Of a stretch of DNA of 38,301 nt, positions 16,411 to 38,301 are shown piece after piece. Within the stretch, counting starts at the first letter, position 1. The number at the start of each line of letters is the position of its first letter. The notes under the pieces were generated by a model, which did no database searches, was not told the DNA's origin, and saw only the letters and a program-made list of their open reading frames with translations. Source of the stretch: Promethearchaeia archaeon (GTDB lineage Archaea > Asgardarchaeota > Lokiarchaeia > Sigyniarchaeales > SOKP01); the NCBI GenBank assembly GCA_029856145.1, contig JAHQWK010000013.1, positions 1 through 38,301 of the forward strand, in the 5' to 3' direction. A program made the position numbers and the translations under genes.

Positions 16411-16462
16411 TTGATCACTCAAAAAAGAATTCAAATTGAAATAAAGCATAGAAAAATCAAGA

Positions 16463-19366: not shown

Positions 19367-19380
19367 TTTAGATCCAGAAT

Positions 19381-20574
19381 CTATAACTTATTTCTTTCTA
19401 TTGCTTTCAAAATTTCTAGATATTTAATAGTTTCTTTAGTATCGCTTTTTCCTATACAGTAATCCAATTGTTTTGCAAAATATTGATTTAATATTTTCAA
19501 TTGAGGGCTTGAAACTATAAATTTTGAACCTTCTTCAATTTGTTTGTCAAATAAAGTATCTTTTACTTCTTCGATATTTAGATTAATTATTTGGAGTGTA
19601 ATCCATTCAAAAATATCTTCAATGTTTTCACTTGTTTTTGCTGAAGCCTCCATATAATAAATTCCTAATTCTTTAGCTAATTCCATACCTTCTTCTGTAG
19701 ACACTACTCTTGAAAGATTTAAATCGACTTTATTTCCGACAAGAATCAAAACAATATTTGGTAACGCCACACGTGTAATAATATCATACCATTTCTTTAC
19801 ATGCTCAAATGATTCTTTGTCTGTTATATCAAACATTATGATTCCCACACGTGAATCTGTTAAATAATCTGGCCATAAACGTTCGAATTGGCTTTGTCCC
19901 GCTAAATTCCATATCATAAACCTTACAGATGTCCCTAATTCCTTAAATTTACATTCTTTTTTAGAAATATAGGTACCAATTGTTGCTTTATAGTCTGCTT
20001 TAAAGATATCATGAACATATCTTTGAACCATACTTGTTTTCCCGACTCCACCGTCTCCGATTAAAGACAATTTATAAACATTCTCGGGTGAATGGGGTTT
20101 ACTTTGGTAATATTCCATTTTTCGTTTTATTTTTTCAAGCTCGGTATCTCTTTTTACTTTGGGAATTACTGGGCTAACAGGTAACCCCCCATCAATGGTC
20201 CTCGCCGCTTTATCAGCTGCTAAATAAGTATATGGAAATACATCATCAACTAAAGCAGTATGATTGAGTATGGAAACTAGAACATGATCTGATCCAGATT
20301 CACAAAAAATAAATCGATATTTGTCTGTATTAAAAGTCCCGGCACCAAAAGTGCCAAGATCAAAATCTTGAGTTAATTGTTTTAGTACTAATTCTACTAA
20401 TGAACTGAAAGCACCAATAAATTTTTTCTCATCTGTTTTATCCGAATTTTTTGTTAAAATGTCAACTATTAGACCTTCTCGATCCACAACAAGTACAGAT
20501 ATTAAAATATCCCCCACTACTTGCATGTACCATTTAAATAAGGTTCTTAATTTAGTTTTATCTATATATGTCAT
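19381..20574 (-). CDS. Roadblock/LC7 domain fused to a Rab/Ras-like small GTPase (eukaryotic signature protein)
   Basis: N-terminal SVLVVDREGLIV...FIGAFSSLV roadblock pattern. G1 GDGGVGKTS, G2 ATIG, G3 WNLAGQ, G4 GNKVD, G5 EASAK. Helical C-extension and no CAAX. Confidence 0.88.
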   Translation of the reverse strand: MTYIDKTKLRTLFKWYMQVVGDILISVLVVDREGLIVDILTKNSDKTDEKKFIGAFSSLVELVLKQLTQDFDLGTFGAGTFNTDKYRFIFCESGSDHVLVSILNHTALVDDVFPYTYLAADKAARTIDGGLPVSPVIPKVKRDTELEKIKRKMEYYQSKPHSPENVYKLSLIGDGGVGKTSMVQRYVHDIFKADYKATIGTYISKKECKFKELGTSVRFMIWNLAGQSQFERLWPDYLTDSRVGIIMFDITDKESFEHVKKWYDIITRVALPNIVLILVGNKVDLNLSRVVSTEEGMELAKELGIYYMEASAKTSENIEDIFEWITLQIINLNIEEVKDTLFDKQIEEGSKFIVSSPQLKILNQYFAKQLDYCIGKSDTKETIKYLEILKAIERNKL

Positions 20575-20703
20575 TACGCACCATTTATATATGATTCCTA
20601 ATGCGATATTGCAATTTTTTAATTATAACAAAATAATAGAGTTTGAATATTTGAATTCTTTTAAATACAAAATTTATAAAAAATTAAAGAAGAAAACTAT
20701 TGT

Positions 20704-23700
20704 TTAGTCTTTCATATTCGGTAAAGAGAAGTAAAATATAGAACCCTTATCTCTCCCTTCCGATTCAACCCAAATATCCTCTTCGTGGAGTTCAATTATT
20801 TTCTTTGAAATGTAAAGTCCTAAACCAGATCCTTCTGAAACTACATTCATTCCCTTACCATATCGTTCAATTTTTCCAAACTTTTTGAAGATTTTTTTTC
20901 TTTCATAATCAGTTAAGCCGATCCCATTATCTTTTACGGATATAATATATTTTTTTTCAGTTTTTTCTGATTTAATTATAATTAGTCCATTTGGAGGGGT
21001 ATATTTTATCGCATTGCTTATTAAATTCATAAGTACTTCATATATCTTTTCTTTTTCGAACATCGTAATCATCTTATCATGAATGTCTAAAACCAATTTG
21101 TGTTTTCGCGTTTCTATTAGTCCTTTTAAGTCTCTGATACAAAATCTAATTAAAAATGCTAGGTCATCCTCTAACTTATTTAATTTAATTTCTTCAGACT
21201 CTAATTTTGATGTTTCTAGAAGATCTGTTATTAATGATTCTAGTCGATAACTTCCTTGTTTTATTTCGTGCAAAACAGAGACGGTATAGATATCAAGCTC
21301 TTCATAATGTTGAGTTAATAATAAATCAGCGTAACCCTTTATTGAAACTAATGGTGTTTTTAACTCATGAGAAGTTCGACTTAGAAGTTCTGATTTTACT
21401 CTACTAATTTCTTTTAGTGAATCTTCCACTTCTTTTTTAGTTGTAATATCTATTAATGAAAGTATTGTTCCTATTCTCCCTTGATAAATTATGGGTTTAG
21501 AAATTACCTCAACCCATTTTAAGTTTCCTGATTTTGTGTTTATTCTACATTGGTATTGGAGCATTGATAGTAAATCATCTTTTTTTCTTGTTTTTACTTT
21601 TTTACGCACATTAGGTAAATCTTCTTCATATATTACTTTAAAAGTATCTTTACCGGACCATTGATTTATTTCTTCAACTGAATATCCGAGTATATTTGAA
21701 AGAGCCTGATTAGTGAATACAACAAATCCGTTCTGAATAATTGAAAGTCCTAATAAAGACTGTTCAGCAATAGTTCTGAATTTTTCTTCTGATTCTTTTA
21801 GTTTTTCTTCAGCCTTAACCCTATCTGTAATGTCTATAACAGATCCAATTATTTCTACAGGATTTCCAGAATCGTCTCTCATCAGCATAACTTCATCACG
21901 CATCCATTGATAAGTACCATTATTTAATTTGAATCGATATTCATGTGTGATATGGCCTTTATCAAATAATTTTGAAAGTTCAGTTAAGACGTGTTCCTTA
22001 TCATCCGCATGAATATGGTTAAGCCAAAATTCTGAATCTTTCACAAAGTAATCAGGCTCATAACCCCATTTATCCTCAACATTATCACTTATAAATGTCG
22101 CGCCATAATTTCCTGACGCTTTGGATGTGTAAATTATTGCCGGATTTGAAGAAACCAGATATTTAAATCTCTCTTCAGATTCTTTTAATTTTCTCTCAAT
22201 TTCTTTCTCTTCAGTTGCATTCTTACCAATGCATAATATTCCTTCTTTAATAGGATATACATTCACTTCAAAATATCCTGCGTGCCCATTTGGGAGTTTG
22301 AAAGAATCAATTATCCGATTAGCTTTCCCTGTATTCATTACGTTTTTATATGTCTTGAAAAAGGTAGTTTGTTCAATACCCGGAAATACGTCGATAATCT
22401 TATTTCCTAATAAATTTTCGATTGGCATGTTAATAATCTTCTCAGCATTTTTGTTTACCAGGATATATTCCCAATCTCTATTTAAAGCATACACTGCATC
22501 TGTAATGGACTCTAATAACATTTCATACTGATTAGAGAGCTTCCGATACTTTCCTTCTGATTTCTTTAATTCTTGTTCTGCTACCACCCGATCGGTTATA
22601 TCTAAAAGAGAAACTATAACTTTAGACCATGTACTTTCAAAACCCGGAATAATTAACGTTCTCATATAAACATTAATAGTATCACCAAAAGAATTTGTAA
22701 TAACTAGTTCTGATTCGAATGTAGTTTCTCCATATATAAAAGATAACATTTCTCTCTTGTTGGTTATAAGAACTTCTGGAGTCATGAATTGAAACAAATT
22801 TTTTTCCATTTGAAGTTTCCTATCGATGAAATAATCCTTGTTTTTAACATTATATAGCTCCAATGTTTTCCTATTGACGTCAATTAATTTAATCATAGAA
22901 CCGAAATTTATAATCTCCTTAGGATTCTCATCTAAATATTTTTCAAAATCAATTACTCCTGAAGCTCTTAAATTGTCTATATAAATCTTTAATTCGGAAA
23001 AATCTTGTTCGAATAAACCAATCGGCGAATTTTCAAATAAATTTCTGTATCTTGCTTCTGATTCTTTTAATTTTTGTTCAGCTTTTTTTCGATCAGTAAT
23101 GTCAATTAAACTGACGAGGACCAGATCTTCTCCATCAAATTTCAATGGGACAGTAGAAAACAATAAATGAACTTTATCAATGTCGCCACCTGGCAATAGA
23201 AAAAGTGTAGCTTCTACATTGATGTGAGGGATTTTATTTTTAAATGTATCAAGAACAGTATTGCGAATAGTACATTCCTGACAGTGCTCACTAAATCCAC
23301 ATCCCTGAGGATCCTTGATTGAATATACACATCGAAGAGCTTCACCTCCGTGAATACCAAATACTTCCTCTTCCCGACGATCTGTAAATTTTAATGCAAA
23401 CTTATTAATTTTTCTAATTCGACGCTCACTATCTAATAGAAGTATAGCTATTGGAGTGTAATTATAGATAGCAGATAATTCAGTTTCGCTTTGTTGAATC
23501 TTTATTTTCGTTATCTTACGGTTTGTGATATCTTGAAATGAATTGATAAATAGTGTTTGATCTCCCTTATTATAAGCAACAGACGTAAGTGATCCCCAAA
23601 AAACAGTTCCATCTTTACGCTTAAACTTTACTTCAAAGTCTTTTACTAACCCCTTTTTATATAATTCAAGAAATTTCTCTCTATCACTTGGATCTTGGTA

Positions 23701-24747
23701 AAGATTAATAACTGGGACGCTTAAAAATTCTTCTTTTGAGCTGTAACCAAATATCTGAAATGCTTGTGAATTACATTCCAATACCTTCCCTTCATGTGTA
23801 GTAATAGAAATTCCTACTGGAATAGATTCTATTAAATCCATTAGTTTTTTCTCTGATTCTCTGATCTTTTCTTTTGCTTTTTCTCTTTCTTGATGCACTT
23901 TTTCTTCAATTTTCTTACGTTCCGTTATGTCTCTAAATAACCCTACAATATTCTTTTTATTATCCACCTCGATTAATTGACCTCTTAAAGATACTGTTAT
24001 ATAATGACCTTCTTTATGCTGAATTCTGAATTCTACTGTCCCAACTTCTCCAGTATTTATTACGTAATTTTGATTCTTTAGTACTTCTTCTTGATCATCT
24101 AGATGTATAAACCTAAAGGCATTTTGATTAATCATCTCTTCTGGTTTATAACCTAATATATCGATAGTTTGAGGGCTTAAGTAGTCGATTTTTCCATCTA
24201 AATCAATTTTAAAAATTATATCAGATATACTTTTAATCAATGTGCGATATTTTTCTTCGGATTCTTTTAATTGATTTGCCCTTTCTTCTATTATCTCTTC
24301 TAAATCCTCATTCAAATCGATCAATTTTTGCTCTCCTTTTTTTTGTTCTCCAATATCTTGAATTTGAACTAAATAATTACTAAGAGAATTATCCTTTCCA
24401 AGAAAAATAGGTGTAATTAATACTTTGAGATATGTCTTTCCTGACTTTGTAGTTTCATATAAATGTTGTTTCTTAACCAAATCAAAATCAAATGAACTTT
24501 CAAATTGTATTGTTTCTCGCTGTTTTAATTTATTTAGATGCTCCTTTGGTATGTTTGGATCATCTAATAGATCAAATCCTTTAACCTCATCCGTGCTTGA
24601 GACACCAAACAAATCCATACATGATTGGTTTAAATCAATCAATTTTCCGTATGAATCATAAATTTCAATTCCTATTGGAGAATCATTATAAATAGATTTG
24701 AACAAATCTTCCATATTAATAGCTTGATTTTCCCCCATTTCAATCAA
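20704..24747 (-). CDS. Soluble PAS sensor histidine kinase (8 PAS + HisKA + HATPase)
   Basis: SRTSHELKTPL, NLISNAIKYT, DNGIG, GSGLGL and eight PAS units. The start may be ATG 24738. Confidence 0.93.
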   Translation of the reverse strand: MIEMGENQAINMEDLFKSIYNDSPIGIEIYDSYGKLIDLNQSCMDLFGVSSTDEVKGFDLLDDPNIPKEHLNKLKQRETIQFESSFDFDLVKKQHLYETTKSGKTYLKVLITPIFLGKDNSLSNYLVQIQDIGEQKKGEQKLIDLNEDLEEIIEERANQLKESEEKYRTLIKSISDIIFKIDLDGKIDYLSPQTIDILGYKPEEMINQNAFRFIHLDDQEEVLKNQNYVINTGEVGTVEFRIQHKEGHYITVSLRGQLIEVDNKKNIVGLFRDITERKKIEEKVHQEREKAKEKIRESEKKLMDLIESIPVGISITTHEGKVLECNSQAFQIFGYSSKEEFLSVPVINLYQDPSDREKFLELYKKGLVKDFEVKFKRKDGTVFWGSLTSVAYNKGDQTLFINSFQDITNRKITKIKIQQSETELSAIYNYTPIAILLLDSERRIRKINKFALKFTDRREEEVFGIHGGEALRCVYSIKDPQGCGFSEHCQECTIRNTVLDTFKNKIPHINVEATLFLLPGGDIDKVHLLFSTVPLKFDGEDLVLVSLIDITDRKKAEQKLKESEARYRNLFENSPIGLFEQDFSELKIYIDNLRASGVIDFEKYLDENPKEIINFGSMIKLIDVNRKTLELYNVKNKDYFIDRKLQMEKNLFQFMTPEVLITNKREMLSFIYGETTFESELVITNSFGDTINVYMRTLIIPGFESTWSKVIVSLLDITDRVVAEQELKKSEGKYRKLSNQYEMLLESITDAVYALNRDWEYILVNKNAEKIINMPIENLLGNKIIDVFPGIEQTTFFKTYKNVMNTGKANRIIDSFKLPNGHAGYFEVNVYPIKEGILCIGKNATEEKEIERKLKESEERFKYLVSSNPAIIYTSKASGNYGATFISDNVEDKWGYEPDYFVKDSEFWLNHIHADDKEHVLTELSKLFDKGHITHEYRFKLNNGTYQWMRDEVMLMRDDSGNPVEIIGSVIDITDRVKAEEKLKESEEKFRTIAEQSLLGLSIIQNGFVVFTNQALSNILGYSVEEINQWSGKDTFKVIYEEDLPNVRKKVKTRKKDDLLSMLQYQCRINTKSGNLKWVEVISKPIIYQGRIGTILSLIDITTKKEVEDSLKEISRVKSELLSRTSHELKTPLVSIKGYADLLLTQHYEELDIYTVSVLHEIKQGSYRLESLITDLLETSKLESEEIKLNKLEDDLAFLIRFCIRDLKGLIETRKHKLVLDIHDKMITMFEKEKIYEVLMNLISNAIKYTPPNGLIIIKSEKTEKKYIISVKDNGIGLTDYERKKIFKKFGKIERYGKGMNVVSEGSGLGLYISKKIIELHEEDIWVESEGRDKGSIFYFSLPNMKD

Positions 24748-26023: not shown

Positions 26024-27256
26024 GTGATTATAATGAAGAAAGTAGCCATTATTGGAGTGGGTCATACAAAATTTGGTAGATTAAACGATAAAGGCTTAAT
26101 GGATCTTTTGTGTGAAGCATCTTTAGAAGCTATAGAAGATTCTAATACAACTAATAAAGATTTCGATTCTGTTTACGTGGGAGCAATGAGTCCAGGAGCT
26201 TTTAATCAACTTTCGGGCGTTGCTAGTGCTCTTGTAGACAAATTAAGCTTATTACCTGCTACCGCTGATCATATTAAGAATGGTCCTGCAAGTGGTGGAT
26301 CAGCAGTTAAAGCCGGTTTTCAAGCAATTACTTCTGGAATGAGTGATTTAGTATTAGTTGTCGGAGGTGAAAAAATGACTCATATTACCACACCTGGTTA
26401 TGTTACTTCCAATGTAGCAACTTTAACGCATCCAGAAGCGGAAAGACGTCATGGTGTTTCACTACCCTCATTTGCAGGCTTGCTTACTCGTGCTTATCTT
26501 GAGAAATATGATGCGAAACTAGAATGGATTTCAGATATTGCGATTAAAAATCATATTAATGGTGTGTCAAACCCAATTGCTCATTTTCAACGAACAATCG
26601 AAGATTTCATGAAGAGTGCCATTGAGAAGGGAAAAGGAAATTGGGATAATGTGCACGATTTCCTTGAGGATGATGAAACCAATCCAATAATAGCAGACCC
26701 ATTAAGACTTTATCATATTTGTCCTATTTCAGATGGAGCTGCTGCTTTAGTTTTATGTGATGGTGATAAAGCGAAGGATTACTGTGATACGCCCATTTCA
26801 ATTTCTGGTATAGGTCAAGCCACAGATACTCATATCTTATATGAACGTGAGGATCTTACTACCCTTAAAGCTTTAAGAATTTGTTCAAACCAAGCATATA
26901 AAATGGCTAAAAAAACCCCAGAAGATATTGATGTAGCCGAATTACATGATGCTTTTGAGATTCTGGAAGCGGTACAAAGTGAGGATATTGGATTTTTTAA
27001 GAAAGGAGAAGGTGCTAAAGCTGCACATGAAGGTTTAACTGAAATAGGCGGAAAAATACCAATAAATCCTTCAGGTGGGTTAAAGGCTAGAGGACATCCT
27101 CTTGGTGCCACAGGAGTTGCTCAAGTTGTAGAATTGATTTGGCAGCTACGAGGAGAAGCGAGTAAGAGACAAGTTAATGGTGCGGAAACTGGAATAACGT
27201 GTAATTTTGGGGGATTTGGTAATAATATAATATCAATATTAGTTGAAAGAATGTAA
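26024..27256 (+). CDS. Thiolase-fold protein (SCP-x/archaeal type) lacking the nucleophilic Cys; likely ATG start at 26033
   Basis: VAIIGVGHTKFG, CPISDGAAA, DIDVAELHDAF, NPSGGLKARGHPLGATG. The CxS motif reads NGPASG. Confidence 0.88.
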   Translation: MIIMKKVAIIGVGHTKFGRLNDKGLMDLLCEASLEAIEDSNTTNKDFDSVYVGAMSPGAFNQLSGVASALVDKLSLLPATADHIKNGPASGGSAVKAGFQAITSGMSDLVLVVGGEKMTHITTPGYVTSNVATLTHPEAERRHGVSLPSFAGLLTRAYLEKYDAKLEWISDIAIKNHINGVSNPIAHFQRTIEDFMKSAIEKGKGNWDNVHDFLEDDETNPIIADPLRLYHICPISDGAAALVLCDGDKAKDYCDTPISISGIGQATDTHILYEREDLTTLKALRICSNQAYKMAKKTPEDIDVAELHDAFEILEAVQSEDIGFFKKGEGAKAAHEGLTEIGGKIPINPSGGLKARGHPLGATGVAQVVELIWQLRGEASKRQVNGAETGITCNFGGFGNNIISILVERM

Positions 27257-27923: not shown

Positions 27924-29876
27924 ATGTCTTATTCAGAGCTAAATCAATTAACAAGGGCGGAAGAGCTTTTTGATGCTGGTAAACTTGATGAAGCTCGTGA
28001 ACTATTAGACAATTTGATCCAACTTGAAGGAGTTAATCTTCAACAAAAAGGTTATTACCAGTTCCTTAAAGGCTTAACTCTACTATATCAGGGAAAATAT
28101 GAAGAAACCATTACATTCGGTGAACAAATGTTTAAAGAAAACCAAAAATTTAATCAAAATCTCCAATCGGTTGATGGATTGTATTTTGTTCTCATTGGAT
28201 TAATTGAGTTTGAAAAATTTGAAGAAGCACTCGAAGTGATTGAACAATCTGAAGATTTATTAAAATCTATCTCTCACATATCTCAAAAAGATTTATTGCC
28301 AAGAAAGGCTCGCATAAATGTAATAAAAGGATACATTAATTTTAAGAAAGGTAATTTGGAGTTAGCAGAGAATTGCTATGAGTGGACTTTAGGTTTAAAA
28401 AAAGAACTTGGTAATTCATTCGAAATTGTTTTGGCTTATCTTAATATGGCAGCTTTTTGTTATAACGTTAAAAGTGAAATAGATATTGCTATTGAATACA
28501 TCAATAAAGCAAAGTCAATAGCAAAGGAGATTAAATTTAACCTCTTCTGGCTTGCTAACTGTCATATGCTTTATGGGGTGATATATGCAAACACTGGTGA
28601 ATTTGAACTTAGTTTAGAACATTATATGAAGAATCTAGCAATATTGAAACAACTTAAAAATAAATGGTATCTTTCAGGAATACTCAATAATATAGGATAT
28701 ACCAATGGCATTATAGGTAATTATGACCTTGCTTTGAAATATTTGGAAGAAAGTTTAATACTTTGGGAGCGAAATCCGACACATTTAGTAAACATTCTGA
28801 GTAATTTAATATCTATGGCTCTGGTAAAAGGCGATATAGAACTTGCTCAACAATATTATAATCAACTAGAAAATTTGTGTAATGAAAAAAAAGACAGATA
28901 TATAGTTGCAATGTACCAATACTCTAAAGCCTTAATGCTAAAAAGGAGTTCTCGAATTCGAGATAAAGCTAAAGTTGAAGAATTATTGAAACAAGTCATC
29001 GAAACAGAAAATTTTAGTTTTGCTATTATTATAAATGCACTAGTTCATCTTTGTGACCTACTTCTCTCAGAATTTCGTCTAAATAATAATATTGAAGTAC
29101 TTGATGAAGTAAATCATTATATTGCTCAATTATTAACTATAGCTGAGAAATCGCATTCATATCTATATTTTTGTGAAACTTTCATATTACAAGCCAAATT
29201 GGCCTTAATAAATTTGGATATGAAGGCAGCTCGGCGATTTCTAACTCAAGCTCAGAAAATAGCCGAAAAGTACGGAATTAGAAGATTAGCTATAAAGATC
29301 TCAAATGAACATGATGAATTACTTAGACAATTAAAGATGTGGGAGAATTTAAAAGAATCAGAAACATCTTTTCCTGAACGCATGAAATTAGCACGATTAA
29401 ATGAGCAAATGGAGCATATGATAAGAAAACGAAGAATTGAGGTACCAGAGCTTTCAGATGAGGAGCCTGTTCTTCTTTTAATTGTTTCAGAAGGTGGTAT
29501 ACCTTTTTTCTCTCAATCATTTATTGAGGATAAATCTTTTGAAGACCACCTTTTTGGAGGATTTTTTACTGCTATCAATTCCTTTATTAATGAAAAATTC
29601 TCAGAGGGGCTTGAACGTGCTTCTTTCGGTGAACATACACTCCTTATGAACTCTATTTCACCTTTTTTAATGTGCTATGTATATAAGGGTCAATCTTATT
29701 CAGCTCAGAATCGGATAAAATCATTTATAAATGAAATACAGAGTAATAAAGAAATGTGGGACACTTTTGAAAAATTTTATCAAATGAACAAGAAAATTCA
29801 CATGAAAGATATTCCTTCTCTTGAACAATTGATAACAAAAATTTTTATTGAAAAAAGTGAGGCTATTAATGTATAG
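27924..29876 (+). CDS. TPR-repeat protein with C-terminal longin/roadblock-like domain
   Basis: TPR motifs (LNNIGYT..IIGNYDLALKYLEESL). C-terminal LLLIVSEGGIPFFSQSF...HLFGGFFTAINSF...ERASFGEHTLLM...LMCYVY fits a longin-like beta-beta-alpha-beta-beta-beta-alpha pattern. Confidence 0.75.
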   Translation: MSYSELNQLTRAEELFDAGKLDEARELLDNLIQLEGVNLQQKGYYQFLKGLTLLYQGKYEETITFGEQMFKENQKFNQNLQSVDGLYFVLIGLIEFEKFEEALEVIEQSEDLLKSISHISQKDLLPRKARINVIKGYINFKKGNLELAENCYEWTLGLKKELGNSFEIVLAYLNMAAFCYNVKSEIDIAIEYINKAKSIAKEIKFNLFWLANCHMLYGVIYANTGEFELSLEHYMKNLAILKQLKNKWYLSGILNNIGYTNGIIGNYDLALKYLEESLILWERNPTHLVNILSNLISMALVKGDIELAQQYYNQLENLCNEKKDRYIVAMYQYSKALMLKRSSRIRDKAKVEELLKQVIETENFSFAIIINALVHLCDLLLSEFRLNNNIEVLDEVNHYIAQLLTIAEKSHSYLYFCETFILQAKLALINLDMKAARRFLTQAQKIAEKYGIRRLAIKISNEHDELLRQLKMWENLKESETSFPERMKLARLNEQMEHMIRKRRIEVPELSDEEPVLLLIVSEGGIPFFSQSFIEDKSFEDHLFGGFFTAINSFINEKFSEGLERASFGEHTLLMNSISPFLMCYVYKGQSYSAQNRIKSFINEIQSNKEMWDTFEKFYQMNKKIHMKDIPSLEQLITKIFIEKSEAINV

Positions 29877-29907: not shown

Positions 29908-31836
29908 TTAAATTGGATCCACTTCTATTGGTTTAAGTTCTGAAAGAAAAAGATTAGCAATCGAGAGCCATTTTTGTTTTGTTTCAGGATCTTTTACATT
30001 TTTCTTGGTTAGTTCTATCCCTTTCCTGAGATTTTCCATTGCTAAATCAAGATTTCCAATTGTTTTATAACAAATTCCTAATTTGATATAAGTCTGGAAA
30101 ATATACCATTCATTGGCTCCTAAAACCATTGACTTTACAAACTTCTTAGCCGCTTCTTCATACTCTTCAAAATACATTAAAATTTCACCATAAGTGTCAT
30201 GATAAATTCCCATTTCAGGTTCATTTTCTACGAGTTTTTGAATTATTTTTATTGCTTCTTCTTTTTTATCTAAAAATTGTAGCCAATAGGCTTTATAACT
30301 AAGAAGATCATTGTCTTCAGGATATTTTTTAATTAAAGACTCGATAATTTCTAATCCCGCTTTAATATTTTGCATTCTTCTAAGAACAGCTGCTTTTAAT
30401 ATTTTAATATCTTTTTCACTCTCAGGAAAAATTTCCAACATTTCCTCTAAAAATTGTATTGTTTCTTTGTATTGGTTAAAATAAACCAAAATTTTTATCT
30501 TCAAATAATATAAATCAAGATTTTCTTGGTTTAATTCAATTTGATTATCAATCTCTTTTATTTGTTCTTCATATTGATTCTCTAAATTTTCATAGATTTG
30601 TGATTGAAAAATATCTGTTATGTTCTGCCAAATAATTCCTTCTAATTTATCATAAGTTCCTTTTAATTCCTTTTTAGTCTCAATTTTATAAGCTAGATAT
30701 TTAATATATTCTGGTAAAAACTCTCTTAATGGTGTGTTCAAATCTTTATTAAATAAGAATTCGCAACTTTTGTTTGCGATATCATTTATAATTGATTTCA
30801 TATCTATTGTGGGCATAACTGACGTTGGTTTCGAAAAAAGCTTATTCAAATATGAAACCTTATTGATTTTATTCTCAGTAATTACTCGAAGCATTTTTTC
30901 TAGTGCTCCATCTGATTGAAAGTAATATTGTTCACCTGATGGTTGCCTTAACTTATAAAATCTTAATGGATATATTTTCCCTTCTGAAATTTCATCAATA
31001 TAATAATCAAGCGTAGTTTTCTTAATTATATAGAGTCTTGAGAAATCTTCAGAAGATATAAAGTTTGGATATTGACTTGGATGATTAATTGAAAGAAAAA
31101 GTAAGATTTTTTGAAATATCTCCTCATCTTTTAATAATGGTTTTACCTTTTCATAATGTAATGTTAATATATTGTTAAGAAACCTAAATTGTATATCTTC
31201 ATCTTTAATATTGTAATTCTCAAAAAATTGAATTGTTTTCTTAGTAATCTCTTCAATTCGTTTACCCTCTTCCTCTAAAATAGTTTGTCTATCCAAATTA
31301 TAATTTTGAAGCATCCTTGAATACTCTGATTTGCCTGCTCGAGTAATTATATATTTTCCTTCCTCTTTTACTATAAAATCCTTTTCGATTAATAAACTCA
31401 AATTCTTTGACAATGAAGATTGATTTATGGACAATGGATCTTCAAGGAAATCAGACCTTTTGCAATAATTATTATTATACATCATCCAAAGAATCCAGTC
31501 AGAATAGTTTCTTCCACTTTTCAAGATTATCTTAGGAGGATAATTTAGTTTATGTGCTTTTTTCTTCGCACTTGATAAGTCATGAAATTTCTTTCTTCCC
31601 TCTGAAGTAATTCTGTAATGCCCTCTAGTAAAATTTTCTACAAAGCCCTTACGTTTTAACGTATCTAGATGTCTAGATAATGTACCTGTAGGAATTTCAA
31701 TTGGCTCTTGATGAAAATCCGCCCATTTACATATATCATTATTACTTAACATCCAGAGAATAATATGGTCATAATTCTGCTTTTTCAACTTGGAAGGACT
31801 ATAGATTTTTTCTGGCGGATAATTTATGCTTCCCAT
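29908..31836 (-). CDS. Tandem winged-helix + C-terminal TPR protein, putative transcriptional regulator
   Basis: Two internal repeats beginning NYPP...NY..ILWM..NN..C..DF..P..I...TLS..L..L..K.F.....Y.IT..G (MarR/ArsR-like wHTH). C-terminal TPRs (YHDTYGEIL..., YIKLGICY...). Confidence 0.78.
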   Translation of the reverse strand: MGSINYPPEKIYSPSKLKKQNYDHIILWMLSNNDICKWADFHQEPIEIPTGTLSRHLDTLKRKGFVENFTRGHYRITSEGRKKFHDLSSAKKKAHKLNYPPKIILKSGRNYSDWILWMMYNNNYCKRSDFLEDPLSINQSSLSKNLSLLIEKDFIVKEEGKYIITRAGKSEYSRMLQNYNLDRQTILEEEGKRIEEITKKTIQFFENYNIKDEDIQFRFLNNILTLHYEKVKPLLKDEEIFQKILLFLSINHPSQYPNFISSEDFSRLYIIKKTTLDYYIDEISEGKIYPLRFYKLRQPSGEQYYFQSDGALEKMLRVITENKINKVSYLNKLFSKPTSVMPTIDMKSIINDIANKSCEFLFNKDLNTPLREFLPEYIKYLAYKIETKKELKGTYDKLEGIIWQNITDIFQSQIYENLENQYEEQIKEIDNQIELNQENLDLYYLKIKILVYFNQYKETIQFLEEMLEIFPESEKDIKILKAAVLRRMQNIKAGLEIIESLIKKYPEDNDLLSYKAYWLQFLDKKEEAIKIIQKLVENEPEMGIYHDTYGEILMYFEEYEEAAKKFVKSMVLGANEWYIFQTYIKLGICYKTIGNLDLAMENLRKGIELTKKNVKDPETKQKWLSIANLFLSELKPIEVDPI

Positions 31837-31884
31837 AATTTAAGAAAATCTATATTTTATTTTCTAAATTAAGATCATTTTTTT

Positions 31885-31990
31885 TCTATTTATATCTATT
31901 TCATAGAACTTCCATAAAAAATCGAAACTATCATGGAACTATCGGAAGCTCAATTATAAAGGAAACTGTGGCTCAAAATTTAATTAACTA
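31885..31990 (+). repeat. Intergenic element copy 1 (divergent promoter/operator candidate)
   Basis: Core GAAACTATCATGGAACTATCGGAAGCTCAATTATAAA at 31924-31960. Confidence 0.9.
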
Positions 31991-32048
31991 TTATTTTGCG
32001 TTTTATTGACTAAAATGCAATATAATTTCTATCTACAAAAAAGAGGAA

Positions 32049-33914
32049 ATGAAAATGAAAAAATTAGTGTTAATTTTTATACTTAGTTTAAACTTAGGCT
32101 TTAGTGTCTTATTATATGGAACAAACATTAATGTTAATGTAAATGATGAGATTAATAATTGGAAAATTGAAATTAAGTCCTCGGCAACAGTATCACATGA
32201 ATATGAGTGGTATCGCACATGGGGTGGTGGTTTAAGTGATATTGGTGGCAACGTAGCAGTTGATTCATCTGATAATGTATTTATCGGAGGAGCAACAGAA
32301 AGTTTCGGTGCAGGTGGAGCGGATATAGTTTTGTTGAAATATGATAACTCAGGAATATTTCAATGGCAACGTATTTGGGGTGGGAATCATTACGATTCTG
32401 GTAATGATATAGCAGTTGATTCATTAGATAACATTTATCTAGTAGGAACGACCAATAGCTATACTGCAGGAGGATCTGATGTTATTCTAATCAAGTATGA
32501 TAATTCCGGAGTTTTACAATGGAACGTAACATGGGGTGGGAGTGAAGATGATGAAGGTCTTGGAATAACTATTGATTCATTGAATAATGTGTATATTACG
32601 GGAGATACAGATACTTATAGTAATAAATTACTAGCAAAGTATGATAGTTCTGGAGTGCTACAGTGGAGCAAAACTAATAGTGAGCTGGCAGGTATTGGTA
32701 AAGAATTGGCTCTAGATTCATTGGGTAATATTTATCTTGTAGGAGAAACGTATTATGGTGAAGGATTAACAGATGTCCTTTTAGAGAAGTACAACTCTGC
32801 AGGAGTGATACAATGGAATAAAACATGGGGAGGAAGTAATTGGGACTATGGATGGGATGTAGATGTAGATTCAGCAAATAATGTGTATGTTTCTGGAAGA
32901 ACTAGAAGTTTTGGGGTTGGAGATAGTGATATGCTTTTGATTAAGTACGATAGTACTGGAACACAACTGTGGAATCGTACATGGGGTGGGGTTAGTACTG
33001 ATCTTGGTGTAAGGATAACAATTGATTCCTTAGATAATGTGTATTTTGCTGGAACGACAGTAGGGTTTGGAGCCGGTCTTTTTGATATGACATTAGTAAA
33101 ATACAATGCTTTTGGTGAACAGCTATGGTACCGAACATGGGGGGGTAGTTCAAGTGATTATGGTGTCGGAGTAATTTTAGATTCATCAGAGAATATATTT
33201 ATCGGAGGAGCAACAGGAAGTTTTGGAGCAGGGATGGAAGATTTTGCATTGGTCAAATATAGTAAGATTCCAGAAATAACAATTAATTCTCCAAACCAGA
33301 ACGATTTATATGGACATTCAGCACCAACATTTAGTATTTATATTCTAGAACCGAATTTACACTCGACATGGTATACTTTAGATGATGGAGTTAATATACC
33401 GTTTAGTGGATTGACTGGGATAATAAATCAAATAGAATGGGATAAAGAAACAAGTGGGGGGGTTACTATTCAATTCTATGCAAATAATACTTTAGGTAAA
33501 GAAGGATCTGCCGAAGTTACAGTCCTTAAAGATATAGAAAATCCTGAAATTTTGATATACAGTCCTAATGTCGATGAAGAATTTGGAAGTATAGCACCTT
33601 CGTATGATCTTGTTATTAATGAGCCAAACCTAGATTCGATTTGGTACACAATTGATGGTGGTGTAAATAATTATACAATCACTCTATTATCAGGCGATAT
33701 TAATCAATCGGCATGGGATGCTGCTGTTTATGGTGCCATAAATATAAGATTTTATGCTGAAGATCTTGTTGGAAATATTGATTATAATGAGGTTAATATC
33801 AAGAAAATAAAGGAAACTCCAGCAATTCCAGGATATGAATTATTCGTACTAATCAGTCTAATTGGCATAATAACCATAATATACCTACGAAAAAATGCTA
33901 AAATAATTAAATAA
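32049..33914 (+). CDS. Secreted SBBP-like beta-propeller protein with two Ig-like domains and Loki-CTERM-like anchor
   Basis: Signal peptide (MKMKKLVLIFILSL), about 7 WGG/D.AVDS..N.Y/KYD.SG blades, two PEI.I.SP...EPNL.S.WYT.D.G repeats and C-terminal PAIPGY + TM + RKNAK. Confidence 0.88.
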   Translation: MKMKKLVLIFILSLNLGFSVLLYGTNINVNVNDEINNWKIEIKSSATVSHEYEWYRTWGGGLSDIGGNVAVDSSDNVFIGGATESFGAGGADIVLLKYDNSGIFQWQRIWGGNHYDSGNDIAVDSLDNIYLVGTTNSYTAGGSDVILIKYDNSGVLQWNVTWGGSEDDEGLGITIDSLNNVYITGDTDTYSNKLLAKYDSSGVLQWSKTNSELAGIGKELALDSLGNIYLVGETYYGEGLTDVLLEKYNSAGVIQWNKTWGGSNWDYGWDVDVDSANNVYVSGRTRSFGVGDSDMLLIKYDSTGTQLWNRTWGGVSTDLGVRITIDSLDNVYFAGTTVGFGAGLFDMTLVKYNAFGEQLWYRTWGGSSSDYGVGVILDSSENIFIGGATGSFGAGMEDFALVKYSKIPEITINSPNQNDLYGHSAPTFSIYILEPNLHSTWYTLDDGVNIPFSGLTGIINQIEWDKETSGGVTIQFYANNTLGKEGSAEVTVLKDIENPEILIYSPNVDEEFGSIAPSYDLVINEPNLDSIWYTIDGGVNNYTITLLSGDINQSAWDAAVYGAINIRFYAEDLVGNIDYNEVNIKKIKETPAIPGYELFVLISLIGIITIIYLRKNAKIIK

Positions 33915-33922
33915 TAAATATC

Positions 33923-33970
33923 TTTTTTTTAAATTTTTTTTGTTAACAAATTTTCAATTTTCTTTTTTAT
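33923..33970 (+). terminator. T-rich terminator candidate
   Basis: Several T6-T8 runs after the stop codon. Confidence 0.5.
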
Positions 33971-34004
33971 TCGTGAATACAATAAAAGTTAGTTCCTCCC
34001 TACC

Positions 34005-34112
34005 TCTATTAAAATATCTAATTCATCTTGAAATTCCATAAAATAACGGAACTATCATAGAACTATCGGAAGCTCAATTATAAAAGTAAGCTCCAACAAA
34101 ATTAAATTAAAT
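34005..34112 (+). repeat. Intergenic element copy 2
   Basis: Core GGAACTATCATAGAACTATCGGAAGCTCAATTATAAA at 34048-34084. Flanks align with copies 1 and 3. Confidence 0.9.
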
Positions 34113-34135
34113 AATTTAAACTTTTAAAAAGCAAT

Positions 34136-34627
34136 GTGATTCTTATGGGAAAAAAGCTTAGAAAAGAAGCAAAGAATTTAGGATTTCTGAATTATCCAAA
34201 AACAGTTCTATATGGAGGTGCAGGAGAATTAACAATTGGTTCTGCATGGGGATATACAACTTCCATTCCTATTTGGGCTCCTTTTCTTGAAGGATTTCTG
34301 AAAAATCTTGATCCTGATACTAAAATAGGTATTTCAAAACCGGATCGTAATAAATTAATCTTTTTTCTAGCACCAAATCTTCATGTATATATAGAAATAG
34401 ATGCTAAGACTGCGGGATTTTTGGACATTAAGAAAAATCATGTGCAACAAATAAATATTTTCAGCAGAGATAATAATTATGTGAATGAGATTGCTCATGT
34501 TATTAATAATTGTCATAAAAGTGGAATCCTAGATGAAATTATTTGGGAGAAGGTTGGAAAAAAATTTAATATTAATCAGGAACAAGAGATTCAAATGTGG
34601 AAAGATATATTAGAACAACCAGTTTAA
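34136..34627 (+). CDS. Hypothetical soluble protein; likely start at ATG 34145
   Basis: 163-codon ORF with globular-looking composition in AT-rich DNA, directly downstream of repeat copy 2. No family recognised. Confidence 0.7.
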   Translation: MILMGKKLRKEAKNLGFLNYPKTVLYGGAGELTIGSAWGYTTSIPIWAPFLEGFLKNLDPDTKIGISKPDRNKLIFFLAPNLHVYIEIDAKTAGFLDIKKNHVQQINIFSRDNNYVNEIAHVINNCHKSGILDEIIWEKVGKKFNINQEQEIQMWKDILEQPV

Positions 34628-34673
34628 TATTTTTCTGTTAATTTAAGGAAAAGAAGCATAAAGATGTAAAAGG

Positions 34674-35594
34674 GTGATGAAGATGAACAAAAATAATGAA
34701 CCATGGTCAAAAAGAGTGTGGTATGTAGAAGGCCTAATTTTTTTTTTTTTTTTATGGATCACAAATTCTAATGTGATAGCGATGATATCACTTATGGCCA
34801 TCTCAGTAATCGTAATTGGAATTACTTCTATATACTTAAAAAATTTGAAAAATATCAGAGAAATGAAAAAAAGCAAAATTCTATCATTAGCTATTCTTAG
34901 TATTCTCGTTTTATTATCATTAGTTTACTTCTTACCAGTTGTAAGAGGTTATGACTATATTTTTTCCGATAAGGAAGATGATGTTATTCGTGATTGTGAT
35001 TCTGAAGTAGATATTGGTGATTTTCATGATGAAATTGACATTGTAAAAATTACTATTGCTGGAAAAAATATTAATTTAACTGTAGCAGGTAATTTTGGTT
35101 ATTGGAATAATAGCCACTTTGCTGCAATACATTTTTCTAATAGATTCATGGCCCAAGAAAATTCTACTGAATTTACATGGACACCTCCTTGTTATGTTAT
35201 AACATGTAAAAAAGATAACGGTGGTTTTAAAGTAACTTTGGAAAGAGCATATAGTTTGGGTTTTGGGGATTTTGTTTATGAAGCATGGAATGGCACCGGT
35301 TGGGAAGATAGAGGTACAGCAACCGCAGCAAATATCTTTACTAGTACTACTGAACATTCAATAATCATAGATATTCCTACTGCAGTCGAGCCAATACCTG
35401 CTGATATGAAAGTCTTGGTCTGGACTCGTTACCTAGTTTCAGTTAATTGTAAATATCATGATTTTGCACCTCAATTGTCTAGTTTTCAAGAAGAAGATAC
35501 AATTTCTAGCTACTATATATTTATATTAATTTGTACGATGATTGGGATTTCTTTAATCATGATAAAAAATACAAGAAACAGAAAACTAAATTAA
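34674..35594 (+). CDS. Secreted/surface protein with C-terminal TM anchor; probable true start ATG 34863, fused in frame to an upstream hydrophobic segment through a T16 tract
   Basis: MKKSKILSLAIL... signal peptide at 34863, acidic DKEDDV...DEIDI motif and a TISSY + TM + KNTRNRK tail resembling Loki-CTERM. Confidence 0.7.
   Translation: MMKMNKNNEPWSKRVWYVEGLIFFFFLWITNSNVIAMISLMAISVIVIGITSIYLKNLKNIREMKKSKILSLAILSILVLLSLVYFLPVVRGYDYIFSDKEDDVIRDCDSEVDIGDFHDEIDIVKITIAGKNINLTVAGNFGYWNNSHFAAIHFSNRFMAQENSTEFTWTPPCYVITCKKDNGGFKVTLERAYSLGFGDFVYEAWNGTGWEDRGTATAANIFTSTTEHSIIIDIPTAVEPIPADMKVLVWTRYLVSVNCKYHDFAPQLSSFQEEDTISSYYIFILICTMIGISLIMIKNTRNRKLN
34738..34753 (+). repeat. T16 homopolymer
   Basis: Sixteen consecutive Ts, the longest homopolymer I noticed in the window. 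Confidence 0.9.
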
Positions 35595-35620
35595 AAATAA
35601 AACTTAAATAAACGATTAGA

Positions 35621-35950
35621 ATGGCAGAGATCGATAACTTGAGAGGAAAATGGGTAATATACCAAGGAAAAGTGTATGAAAAGACTGGTTCTGGTGAAAT
35701 GGATTTGAGTGATAGAACAATATCTAACGTGAGTGAAATTATCGGTCTAAAGGAACTCAAAAAACTTACTAAGTTGAATCTCTCAAATAATAACATTTCT
35801 GAGATCAAAGGTCTTAAAAAGTTAACCGAATTGACAGAATTCAATATTGCCTATAAAAGAAAATTTGAAGCTTTAAAAAAAAGTAGTATTCTAAAAAATA
35901 ATATAATATTTTTTAATGTGAAATCCAAAAATAATAAAAAGAGGTATTAG
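35621..35950 (+). pseudogene. 3'-truncated leucine-rich repeat (SDS22-like) gene
   Basis: LKKLTKLNLSNNNISEIKGLKKLTEL consensus. The pattern breaks after about 2.5 repeats near 35853 and runs into Lys/Asn-rich, non-coding-like sequence. Confidence 0.65.
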
Positions 35951-35952
35951 AT

Positions 35953-36474
35953 ATGGCTCAAATCAAGAAGAAAGATAGGACACAATATATTTGGAAATTA
36001 ATAATGGCAGGTGGTGTTTTAACACTATTAAGTCTGGTTCTTCCGTCAGCCTTTTTCATAGAATCTGGAGTGTGGGGTTTGTTATGGTATATTGGTATTT
36101 TATGGGGAGGAGATATTTATGGAGGAGAAGTTCTAGGTTTTATTGATGATGGTAGATACATACCAATTGGAGTTATTACAACGGTTTTATTAATTATAGC
36201 ATTGATATTAATGGCTATTTCAGCTAGAAATACAAAAAAAGAGAGAAATTTCAAACTAAACGCAGGAATAAGTTTTCTTGGTAGTATATTAGCCATTATT
36301 GGTCCAATTGTATATTATTTCTATTTGGATGCAGAAATCCCTGTCCTCTTTTGGGATCATTTTCTTCCATTTGTGGGAGTATTTCTTCCACTCATAGCTA
36401 GCATCTTAGGAATTATCAGTGCTATCATGCTTGTGTCTGCTACTAAATTAGGATCAAAATCAGGAGAAAGGTAG
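35953..36474 (+). CDS. Four-TM membrane protein
   Basis: Four hydrophobic helices, a Trp/Gly-rich first loop and SD GAGGT. Confidence 0.75.
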   Translation: MAQIKKKDRTQYIWKLIMAGGVLTLLSLVLPSAFFIESGVWGLLWYIGILWGGDIYGGEVLGFIDDGRYIPIGVITTVLLIIALILMAISARNTKKERNFKLNAGISFLGSILAIIGPIVYYFYLDAEIPVLFWDHFLPFVGVFLPLIASILGIISAIMLVSATKLGSKSGER

Positions 36475-36499
36475 AACAAAGAGGAAGGCATAAATTTAT

Positions 36500-36752
36500 T
36501 TCTATAACAAATCTCCGTAGTACTTGGATCAGTTTTAGATAGAGTGACTTTCCACTCATCTAAGTCTGCAAATAAATCTAAAGCAGATTCAATTTCAATT
36601 TCCCATGCATACAAAAATACAGTATACCCGCTATTAGCTCTTAAGCTAGTAGGTAGCGTAATCTCGTCGCTGGTTGCAGCGTTAGGACCAGACTGAACAA
36701 CTTGTTTACGGATAAACTCAATTGGTAAACTTGCTATTGGTATAATAACCAC
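36500..36752 (-). pseudogene. 5' fragment of an unidentified gene, possibly a small-virus capsid-like protein
   Basis: SD-like AGGTGG followed by ATA (possibly a decayed ATG) and then PIASLPIEFIRKQVVQSGPNAATSDEITLP.... The frame runs without its own stop into the antisense strand of the neighbouring gene (stop at 36357). Confidence 0.4.
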
Positions 36753-36848
36753 CTTATATCTATATTATTTTTTAAGGATAAGAAGATGCTTTTTATATTC
36801 ACACCAAGGGTTAAAGATCCTATGTGGTAAACGTAGAACATCTTCAAA

Positions 36849-37223
36849 TTACAAACTACTAAATATTATTTTAGGAGGATAATTAAGTTTAGATGTTTTT
36901 TTCTTAGAACTTGATAGTTCTTGAAATTTCTTTTTTCCCTCTGAGGTAATTCTGTAATGACCTCGTGTAAAATTTTCTACAAAACCTTTACGTTTTAACT
37001 TATCTAAATGTCTCGATAAAGTACCTGTAGGGATTGAGATAGGTTCTTGGCAAAAGTCCACCCATTCACATATATCGTTATTGTATAACATCCAGAGAAG
37101 AATGTGGTCATAATTCGGTCTTTTCAATTTGGAAGGGCTATAGATCTTTTCTGGAGGATAATTTATGCTTCCTATATTCTGATTGAAATAATTTATTTTT
37201 TCTAAAATATAGATCGGTTTCAT
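36849..37223 (-). pseudogene. Truncated paralog of the 29908-31836 regulator (first wHTH only)
   Basis: About 15 differences over ~103 aligned residues. The ancestral ATG is now ATA (37173-37175), there is an in-frame ATG at 37223, and homology stops near 36862. Confidence 0.88.
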
Positions 37224-37224
37224 T

Positions 37225-37330
37225 TCTATTTATATCTATTTCATAGAACTTCCACAAAGAAGTGGAACTATTATGGAACTATCGGAAGCTCAATTATAAA
37301 TGCAACTATATCTCAAAATTATATTAATCA
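37225..37330 (+). repeat. Intergenic element copy 3
   Basis: Core GGAACTATTATGGAACTATCGGAAGCTCAATTATAAA at 37264-37300. Confidence 0.9.
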
Positions 37331-37375
37331 TCAAATAGATGATAAACTAAATTTTAAAAAAAAGGGTGTAAAAAT

Positions 37376-38301
37376 ATGAAAAAAAAGTTTGTAGTAATTT
37401 TGACATGGGTTATAATCCTTATTTTTCCATATTTTGGTAGTTTTCCGATGTCTGAAACGAAAGAAGAGGATAAGTATGGTAATACTAGTAAACCTATTTT
37501 GTCAGATGTTATTGTAGAAAACTATACTGTTCCAGGGGTTTCAGCTGCCATTCCATCAAGTCAGTTAGTCAAAATTGGAGTTCTTGGTGATATGGACGAT
37601 ATCACAGGTAATCATTCATGGAAGGGAGCTATGGTAGCCGCGAGAGAAATAAATGAAGCAGGGGGTCTTTTGCTTAATGGTTCAACGTATTATATTGGAA
37701 TCATAGCAGAGAATACGGATGAAGCAAATCCAATGCTTAATCCTGCCACTGGAGTAAGTGCAGCGCTTAAAATGGTTAATGATCATAAACCACACTTTGT
37801 TCTTGGGGGATTTCGTTATGAATCTTTAGTAGCTTATCAAGAAGTTATAATGGATGCGAAAATACCCTTTATTTGCACTGGTTGTTCAGTAGAAGCTCTA
37901 TGTCTAAATGTAAAAAATTTTTACCCACGTTATAAATATTTCTTTAGAATTATGCCAATTAATACAACGGCATTGGCATTTGAACTTGCATCATATATCT
38001 CAGAACTAACAGATTACTTATCTACTCATTATGAAGGAAATGTAACAAAAGTAGTTATTGTGCGAGAAGACTTAACTTGGGCGCCCCCTTCTTTCTGGTA
38101 TATTTTAAATGCTTCTCTTTCTACCGATATAATTCTATCCGAGAGTATTTTACCTATAGATCTTAACCCTTTAGCCATAGAAGGGCTTTTAAGTAATTAT
38201 GACTCAATGGGGGCTCAAATCTTAGTTCCACTTATCTCTGGGCATTTAGGAACATATCTAGGTCAATATTATGGAGAAGTAAAACCAAGATTCTTATTAG
38301 C
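37376..38301 (+). CDS. Periplasmic-binding-protein type 1 (LivJ/LivK-like ABC substrate-binding protein); runs off the window end and is absent from the ORF track
   Basis: Manual translation: MKKKFVVILTWVIILIF... (signal/anchor), VKIGVLGDM...WKGAMVAAREINEAGGLLLNG..., VLGGFRYE, KIPFICTG, YKYFFRIMP. SD GGGTG. Confidence 0.88.
   Translation, partial: MKKKFVVILTWVIILIFPYFGSFPMSETKEEDKYGNTSKPILSDVIVENYTVPGVSAAIPSSQLVKIGVLGDMDDITGNHSWKGAMVAAREINEAGGLLLNGSTYYIGIIAENTDEANPMLNPATGVSAALKMVNDHKPHFVLGGFRYESLVAYQEVIMDAKIPFICTGCSVEALCLNVKNFYPRYKYFFRIMPINTTALAFELASYISELTDYLSTHYEGNVTKVVIVREDLTWAPPSFWYILNASLSTDIILSESILPIDLNPLAIEGLLSNYDSMGAQILVPLISGHLGTYLGQYYGEVKPRFLL

Follow-up and report, generated by a model that had tools for sequence, protein, structure and literature searches.

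The window analysed here, 38,301 nt in length, is the whole of one contig (C12) of the 3.55-Mb, 32-contig assembly of a Promethearchaeia archaeon, and its right-hand part carries three copies of a short intergenic element, each placed ahead of a different gene. The first copy lies between two divergent genes, one on the minus strand encoding a 642-residue putative regulator, here called R1 (29908..31836), in which tandem winged helix-turn-helix (wHTH) domains are joined to a C-terminal TPR domain, and one on the plus strand encoding a 621-residue SBBP β-propeller surface protein (32049..33914). The second copy precedes a plus-strand gene for a protein of ~160 residues (34145..34627). The third separates a truncated paralogue of R1 (36849..37223, minus strand) from a plus-strand gene for a LivK-like periplasmic binding protein (37376..38299), which is cut by the contig end. 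Copy 1 will be referred to as the home site, and copies with no adjoining regulator gene, such as copy 2, as satellites. Relatives of the R1 gene are found in metagenome-assembled genomes of Promethearchaeota (Lokiarchaeia), for example Loki_b32.

An original prediction, made from the letters of the window, held that a 25-nt core is identical in all three copies while its flanks have diverged, and this is borne out. The 25-mer GAACTATCGGAAGCTCAATTATAAA occurs exactly at 31936-31960, 34060-34084 and 37276-37300, always on the plus strand, with no further match at up to three mismatches within the window and none in 100 shuffles, and a three-way alignment shows an invariant core between diverged flanks. 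An independent repeat finder returned a family of ~110 nt (31878-31987, 34002-34111 and 37218-37327), the second and third members of which are 65% and 86% identical to copy 1. Copies 1 and 3 lie inside a longer duplication of ~480 nt (31516-31815 versus 36855-37154, with 84% nucleotide identity), which also takes in the first ~107 codons of the divergent wHTH gene; copy 2 has the ~110-nt element alone in common with the others. The repeat of ~105 bp that had been described is real, but the element is larger than that, for it runs on into a conserved downstream leader, which in most copies includes a hairpin and a Shine-Dalgarno (SD) sequence.

In alignments of 32 and of 49 copies, the first of the ordered parts is GAACTTCCA, whose GGAA core reads on the opposite strand; it is followed by a spacer of ~9 nt and then by two direct repeats, G(G/A)AACTATC and, after 2 nt, GGAACTATC, whose starts are 11 bp apart, as originally predicted. 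GGAAGCTC stands 9 bp beyond the second direct repeat, at the position of the B recognition element (BRE), and leads through AA to a predicted TATA box, TTATAAA. The four GGAA-type sites, located 3-55 nt upstream of TTATAAA, are conserved across the 49 aligned copies. The inverted site GAACTTCC forms an internal inverted repeat with GGAAGCTC, and the most invariant stretch, GGAAGCTCAATTATAAA, spans the BRE and TATA positions. A second operator subtype, in which the palindrome TTCCATGGAA stands in place of the distal direct repeat, is also present among the aligned copies; every copy in the source genome is of the first subtype.

Read on the plus strand, the operator and TATA box of copy 1 (31905..31960) score 78 bits with a position weight matrix (PWM), and a covariance model (CM) matches 31905-32037 with 98.8 bits. 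Its sites are the inverted GGAA site GAACTTCCA (31906-31914), the distal direct repeat GAAACTATC (31924-31932), the proximal direct repeat GGAACTATC (31935-31943), GGAAGCTC at the BRE position (31944-31951) and TTATAAA (31954-31960). In copy 2 (34029..34084, plus strand, PWM 73 bits), TTCCA (34034-34038) is followed by GGAACTATC (34048-34056), AGAACTATC (34059-34067), GGAAGCTC (34068-34075) and TTATAAA (34078-34084). Copy 3 (37245..37300, plus strand, PWM 71 bits; CM match 37245-37375, 120.7 bits) comprises TTCCA (37250-37254), GGAACTATT (37264-37272), GGAACTATC (37275-37283), GGAAGCTC (37284-37291) and TTATAAA (37294-37300). The direct repeats thus start at 31924/31935, 34048/34059 and 37264/37275, in each case ahead of GGAAGCTC and TTATAAA. 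The start codon follows TTATAAA after 88 nt in copy 1, 60 nt in copy 2 (ATG at 34145) and 75 nt in copy 3, within the predicted range of 60-90 nt.

The home-site array is positioned between two outward-facing core promoters, one on the regulator side and one on the target side. The putative TATA box of the regulator's own promoter is read as TATAAATAG on the minus strand (31886-31895), ~50 nt before the R1 ATG (31836), within a block that is conserved in orthologous intergenic regions; copy 3 has a matching outward-facing TATA box on its regulator side, at 37226-37235. The possibility that the upstream TTTATAT box serves as a plus-strand promoter, in which case the repeats would be transcribed as part of a leader RNA, was considered and rejected, since satellite copies are without this box yet keep TTATAAA.

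Downstream of TTATAAA, the element continues with ~10 nt, the motif ATCTCAA, TTTAATTA and a hairpin, ATCATC-N5-GATGAT, and the 3' part of the leader consists of an A-rich tract, an SD sequence (GAGTTGAT or GGTGATC), ~8 nt and the start codon. Within the window, the canonical hairpin and SD sequence are found in copy 3 only. The conserved leader of this copy, delimited by alignments and pair counts, occupies 37301..37375 on the plus strand, with ATCTCAA (37310-37316) directly ahead of the expected transcription start site (TSS), the hairpin ATCATC-AAATA-GATGAT at 37327-37343 and the SD sequence GGGTG at 37364-37368, after the A-rich tract. Copy 1 has a different leader, common to the copies before genes of the hyp163 family on contig C26 of the source genome and in genome G035, which suggests that a leader can travel with the promoter to unrelated genes.

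Standard pairs account for 85.6% of the pair cells of the hairpin; shuffling gives 78%, and sliding the partner columns gives 14-59%. Double-sided changes (n = 18) include ATCACC/GGTGAT and AGCATC/GATGCT, 13 cells are G-U or U-G and pair on the plus strand only, and the length of the loop varies from ~3 to 8 nt. The hairpin might instead be a palindromic operator in the DNA, bound by a dimer; this interpretation was rejected on account of the wobbles and the loop, because neither strand-specific wobbles nor a variable loop would be tolerated by a dimeric protein site, whereas both are compatible with an RNA feature of a transcript. Most likely, then, the hairpin is located in the transcript made from the element's own promoter, and such a location supports a transcription start between TTATAAA and the hairpin. 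A search of Rfam gave no relevant match; its two chance-level matches (E 0.36 and 0.76) lie one inside the regulator coding sequence and the other on the opposite strand, overlapping the last bases of the leader in copy 3 and the beginning of the gene for the binding protein. Scans for sigma-70 promoters and intrinsic terminators, using models not applicable to archaea, remained at background level.

Beyond the window, the source genome contains the 25-mer seven times at no more than one mismatch, the additional four sites being located on contigs C15 (two), C23 and C26. The PWM, built on a 51-nt block and run over 7.1 million positions of this genome, assigns 70-78 bits to seven sites and 30 bits to one (on contig C10), with nothing else above 5 bits, and a reversed-pattern control gave no matches. 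The CM, derived from the 49 aligned copies, finds nine matches in the source genome (seven strong and two diverged), the highest number in the genus, and one to seven matches each in 36 of the 53 other congeneric genomes. At the level of the order, 64 of 131 genomes of the family, belonging to five genera, carry one to nine copies each, and none were found in 19 genomes from three other families of the order. In total, ~170 CM matches in 65 genomes were obtained from the genus and order searches, which overlap, and ~50 copies were aligned. An exact-pattern search (25-mer, up to three mismatches) covered 36 genomes and, with 13 of them positive, underestimates the spread relative to the CM. The motif proposed from the window is thus a discrete family of sites, conserved across five genera. 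The flanks of satellite copies cannot be aligned, and several copies are situated near contig ends.

The three genes downstream of the element in the window had been called unrelated, and domain searches (Pfam and NCBIfam) agree. The β-propeller protein (Pfam SBBP, 1.7e-25) starts with a signal-like segment and includes a Loki-CTERM sorting domain at residues 593-616 (NCBIfam, 23.3 bits versus a cut-off of 19.9). The ~160-residue protein, whose start at ATG 34145 was chosen by comparison of homologues, has an N terminus that is not hydrophobic and no match in Pfam or NCBIfam; its homologues are also present behind the motif on C26 and in G035 (tblastn identity of 31-32% to loci L007 and L020). 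The binding protein (Pfam Peripla_BP_6, 2.1e-08) again has a signal-like N terminus, with a hydrophobicity of 2.62. In the source genome as a whole, the element precedes genes for the SBBP/Loki-CTERM protein, an 1185-residue LVIVD/Big_13/CBM protein, the LivK-like protein, a leucine-rich repeat (LRR) membrane protein, the hyp163 family (followed on C26 by a gene for a NosD-like β-helix protein) and a 219-residue secreted protein. A near-identical upstream region, represented by the seven sites with at most one mismatch in the 25-mer, is therefore found before non-homologous genes of a single genome.

A similar picture is seen in the relatives. An open reading frame starts 35-122 nt past the TATA box at 47 of 49 distinct sites, and ~40 of these 47 products have a hydrophobic N terminus, as expected for membrane or secreted proteins. 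Recurrent among them are a multi-pass membrane protein of ~131 residues (MTEIKKLTKI...), signal-peptide proteins of ~220 and ~224 residues and another small secreted family. Which gene faces the regulator depends on the species: its product may belong to family A or B, be an SBBP protein, a large secreted protein or, occasionally, a cytosolic one. The combinations of operator subtype with hairpin variant and cargo family are mixed. The suggestion of interchangeable, mostly cell-surface cargo is supported by this comparison.

R1 contains two wHTH domains, at residues ~22-88 (recognition helix IPTGTLSRHL) and ~111-176 (INQSSLSKNL), and a TPR domain at residues ~419-634 (Pfam TPR families), as delineated with Pfam, AlphaFold2 (AF2) models and orthologue alignments. 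The Pfam matches in the DNA-binding part are to HTH_45 (36.1 bits, cut-off 25.5) and HTH_34 (33.7 bits, cut-off 27). Two AF2 models have predicted local distance difference test (pLDDT) values of 77 and 84, and an H-H-H-E-E topology is modelled twice, with pLDDT of ~90 in both wHTH domains. The modelling also predicts a third winged-helix-like domain, undetected by Pfam, at residues ~213-307 (helices 213-285, strands 293-307), after the two wHTH domains and ahead of a long helical linker. Compared with the PDB by Foldseek, the N-terminal two-domain model gives weak matches to SarS, MarR, AspA-DNA and RosR-DNA (E of ~1e-3 to 1e-2), and a search with the whole of R1 returned generic TPR repeats only and no informative regulator. 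Orthologues of R1 are 55-84% identical, and its homologues fill at least 1192 sequence clusters, all of them unnamed, hypothetical or annotated as "TPR repeat protein"; in the literature we found no description of an Asgard wHTH-TPR regulator family and no promoter or TSS study of Lokiarchaea.

Copies 1 and 3 are indeed divergent from paralogous wHTH genes that share the helix IPTGTLSRHL, as had been noticed, and the two genes differ in their state of preservation. The paralogue beside copy 3 is 124 codons long, comprises wHTH1 only (83% amino acid identity to R1 residues 1-107) and just reaches the Pfam cut-off for HTH_34 (27.1 bits versus 27). ATA now stands in place of its original ATG, and the only in-frame ATG upstream (37221-37223) is just 3-4 nt away from the predicted TATA box, which would place it upstream of any transcript from that promoter. 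Unless translation begins at a non-canonical codon, this stump is probably a decaying, non-functional remnant carried along by the promoter duplication. The source genome has at least seven full-length paralogues of R1, including those at C10:36636-38519, C32:37156-39048, C23:98848-100767, C23:103006-104898 and C3:~140000-150500. Each paralogue faces its own GAA-rich operator variant and a TATA box, ~65-115 nt from its ATG, and among them the first recognition helix varies and the second (INQSSLSKN) is invariant.

The original prediction that the motif is enriched beside this wHTH-TPR family is supported by several comparisons. Among 18 orthologues from other species (62-84% identity), 14 have their best PWM match (25-77 bits) in divergent orientation and 72-78 nt (~74 nt) from the start codon, and all 21 congeneric genomes with an R1 orthologue of at least 70% identity have a CM match. 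Among the 36 genomes searched with the 25-mer at up to three mismatches, 10 of 13 with an R1 orthologue are positive, compared with 3 of 23 without one. Weaker CM matches elsewhere mostly adjoin a paralogue of the C10 type (58-62% identity), as judged by coordinates. The operator block is 75-94% identical between species, compared with 58-81% at the four-fold synonymous sites of the adjacent gene (0.94 versus 0.68 at L046, 0.77 versus 0.58 at L037). Where the wHTH1 helix reads LSTLSKYL instead of TGTLSRHL, in orthologues and in paralogues, a GAACTTC-N4-5-GAAGTTC palindrome replaces the motif. Such patterns of helix and operator are as would be expected from an autoregulated family of transcription factors with cognate operators. 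One part of the original proposal, that regulator and operator move as a unit, does not agree with the distribution of sites: five of the seven strong sites have no adjoining regulator gene, and the one next to copy 3 is the start-less stump. The unit that spreads would seem to be the promoter plus leader, mostly alone.

As read from its sequence and distribution, the element is a real, selected, family-specific promoter-operator-leader module that is reused before mostly envelope genes. The reading that we favor, and consider more likely than not, is that it represents the autoregulated operator-promoter of an R1 regulon. R1 would bind the array through its tandem winged helices, so that a single polypeptide reads direct repeats one helical turn apart, and would control its own gene together with all genes to which the module has been copied, while the TPR half would receive a signal in the form of a ligand or a protein partner. 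Activation by R1 is the more likely mode, because most of the array lies upstream of TATA and the BRE looks weak; repression through the site that overlaps the BRE is the alternative mode.

Several observations weigh against this reading. The last site overlaps the BRE position, so that either sign of regulation may apply, the linkage and the co-variation of helix and operator have been inherited by descent and reflect few independent events, and the structural similarity of the modelled DNA-binding part of R1 to known regulators (E of ~1e-3 to 1e-2) is weak. In addition, two genomes, G011 (99% complete) and G035 (95% complete), have the exact 25-mer, at G011:C89:48534-48558 (L008, before an SBBP gene) and G035:C171:3415-3439 (L020, before a hyp163-family gene), with neither an R1 orthologue nor a paralogue with an SRH-type helix in the assembly. 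At L008, the conserved part of the operator is its TATA-proximal half only. Either the regulator gene is unassembled in these two genomes, or another paralogue or factor reads the site, or the core is independent of R1; an artefact may account for the missing gene, since such loci often break assemblies.

The last of these options leads to the rival explanation that survives best, a possible one to which we would give rather less than half the weight of an R1 regulon. The element would then be a reused promoter and leader outside R1 control. Its core promoter would be strong or specialised, recognised perhaps by a TFB/TBP paralogue or by a different transcription factor, and would have been copied before envelope genes, and the adjacency of the element to the regulator would be due only to descent from an ancestral locus. 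Besides G011 and G035, the position of the most invariant stretch over BRE and TATA is in keeping with this explanation, as is the documented reuse of promoters before non-homologous genes in prokaryotes (PMC3575422). However, a bare core promoter needs no conserved GGAA repeats up to ~50 nt upstream of TATA, the element is retained in each of the 21 genomes that have the R1 orthologue, at a constant distance from the start codon, and the paralogous regulators have matching yet distinct operator variants.

That the invariant core could be a recombination or insertion site had been put forward as an alternative, and in the form of a site-specific recombination site or a homology patch for the swapping of gene cassettes we regard it as very improbable. 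Copies in direct orientation around interchangeable genes, the shuffling of operator subtype, hairpin subtype and cargo family, and the several copies near contig ends could be accommodated by such a site. No integrase or recombinase domain is present, however, in the scanned open reading frames of at least 100 residues of the window or in the checked neighbours of other copies. The end points of similarity vary between copies and lie outside the core, the geometry of the promoter relative to the start codon is kept at every copy, with a gene 35-122 nt downstream, and many species keep the core at a home site that is their only copy, with no partner for recombination. Equally improbable is a miniature mobile element or small-RNA gene landing in intergenic DNA, for although the module is short (~130 nt), multi-copy and equipped with an internal inverted repeat (GAACTTCC ... 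GGAAGCTC) and a hairpin, its ends have neither target-site duplications nor terminal repeats, its orientation is always that of the downstream gene, it ends in an SD sequence and a start codon, none of the 49 sites examined is inside a gene or opposite to the neighbouring gene, Rfam gives no match, and there are only one to nine copies per genome.

An R1 regulon of the kind proposed above resembles several known systems in part. The fla promoter of Methanococcus maripaludis has four EarA sites adjoining its BRE (PMC5512572), and TrmBL1 is an archaeal activator bound upstream of BRE/TATA (PMC4706686). Like the fla promoter, the element presents four short repeated sites immediately upstream of BRE/TATA and drives cell-surface genes, and by analogy with EarA and TrmBL1 the expected effect of an array in this position would be activation by recruitment of TBP/TFB. 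R1, with 642 residues, two or three winged helices and a TPR domain, is in contrast unrelated to EarA and TrmB; furthermore, unlike in the EarA system, the module has been copied before many unrelated genes, and the divergent regulator gene shares the operator. Highly similar upstream regions that precede non-homologous genes and carry regulatory motifs have been described as putative mobile promoters (Nijveen, Matus-Garcia and van Passel 2012, PMC3575422). The present case is similar, both within a genome and across relatives, and differs in that the unit is tied to an identifiable candidate cognate regulator gene, extends over five genera, is composed of defined sub-elements and has no insertion sequence or other mobile element associated with it.

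SarS of the SarA family (Staphylococcus aureus, PDB 1p4x) likewise has two homologous wHTH domains in one chain, and a monomer can act in a dimer-like manner on repeated sites. It is the best match among DNA-binding proteins to the two-domain model of R1 (rank 4 overall), at a weak level (E 1.1e-3, template modelling score 0.25-0.30, 12% identity); SarS is bacterial and has no TPR domain. The RRNPP regulators of Bacillota (Rgg/SHP, PlcR/PapR, NprR and PrgX) are one-component systems that combine a DNA-binding domain with a TPR sensor. With these R1 shares the fusion of the two functions, the back-to-back arrangement of regulator and target over a shared operator, which is often seen among them, and the occurrence within one genome of multiple paralogues that have separate operators. 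The differences are the tandem wHTH, the archaeal promoters and the divergent genes, which encode membrane or surface proteins of 131-1185 residues. Pfam detects only winged-helix families in R1 and no HTH_3/XRE match, and a PDB profile search and Foldseek find for its TPR part generic TPRs only (PA4667, APC subunits, Tom70, MamA and CTPR), with no receptor of the Rgg, PlcR or NprR type. A weak match to Rgg_C belongs to the neighbouring 650-residue TPR protein and not to R1. No short open reading frame with its own SD sequence, such as an RRNPP-like pro-peptide gene, was seen in the leaders inspected by eye, no systematic search for micro-ORFs having been made.

The 650-residue neighbour (27924..29876, plus strand; Pfam TPR_12 and TPR_MalT) consists entirely of TPRs and has no DNA-binding domain. 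Its paralogues (tblastn identity 47-61%) follow many motif-driven small genes in relatives and on C23. At L057 (G000:C23:104000-111998) and L053 (G005:C1:3200000-3216000), motif-driven small genes alternate with such paralogues, and each cluster ends with a 185-residue Ras/Rab-like GTPase beside another paralogue of the regulator. In relatives (L033 and L054), the regulator gene borders at its 3' end on a thiolase gene, with the 650-residue TPR gene on the far side of the cargo gene; in the source genome, the TPR gene is placed between the thiolase (26024-27256) and the regulator, with the SBBP gene at the cargo position, which indicates that the home locus has been rearranged. Further upstream of the regulator locus is a signalling-rich region (10802-24747), which encodes three large PAS-rich histidine kinases (656, 1005 and 1347 residues) and a 397-residue protein with a Ras-family GTPase domain behind an N-terminal extension of ~165 residues. 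Downstream of the second cargo gene, the window encodes a 306-residue membrane protein of the "NEPWSKRVWY" family (34674-35594, plus strand) and a 109-residue LRR protein (35621-35950, plus strand). In a 366-residue paralogue on C23, the membrane segment and the LRRs are fused, and the pair in the window may be a split or broken version of a protein of this type.

We can speculate further, as a doubtful extension of the proposed R1 regulon, that R1 and its paralogues form the DNA-binding arm of a signalling circuit specific to Asgard archaea. Every regulator would have its own operator dialect, with the second winged helix invariant in all of them, the all-TPR proteins of 650 residues and the Rab-like GTPase encoded around the motif clusters would gate the regulators, and the display of surface, adhesion and uptake proteins would be rewired by copying the promoter-leader module of ~130 nt before new genes. 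If this were true, the regulon would be evolving by promoter capture rather than by gene movement.

To our knowledge, there is hardly any experimental information on how Asgard archaea regulate their genes. The element described here provides a conserved promoter architecture defined base by base, from operator sites and TATA box through the region of initiation to leader hairpin and SD sequence. It comes with a candidate cognate regulator and with natural variants of helix and operator, which make direct tests of binding and transcription possible, and it may supply later genetic work in Asgard archaea with a candidate for a regulated promoter. For the Lokiarchaeal family in which it is found, it would be an example of the growth of a regulon by reuse of a promoter before cell-surface genes.

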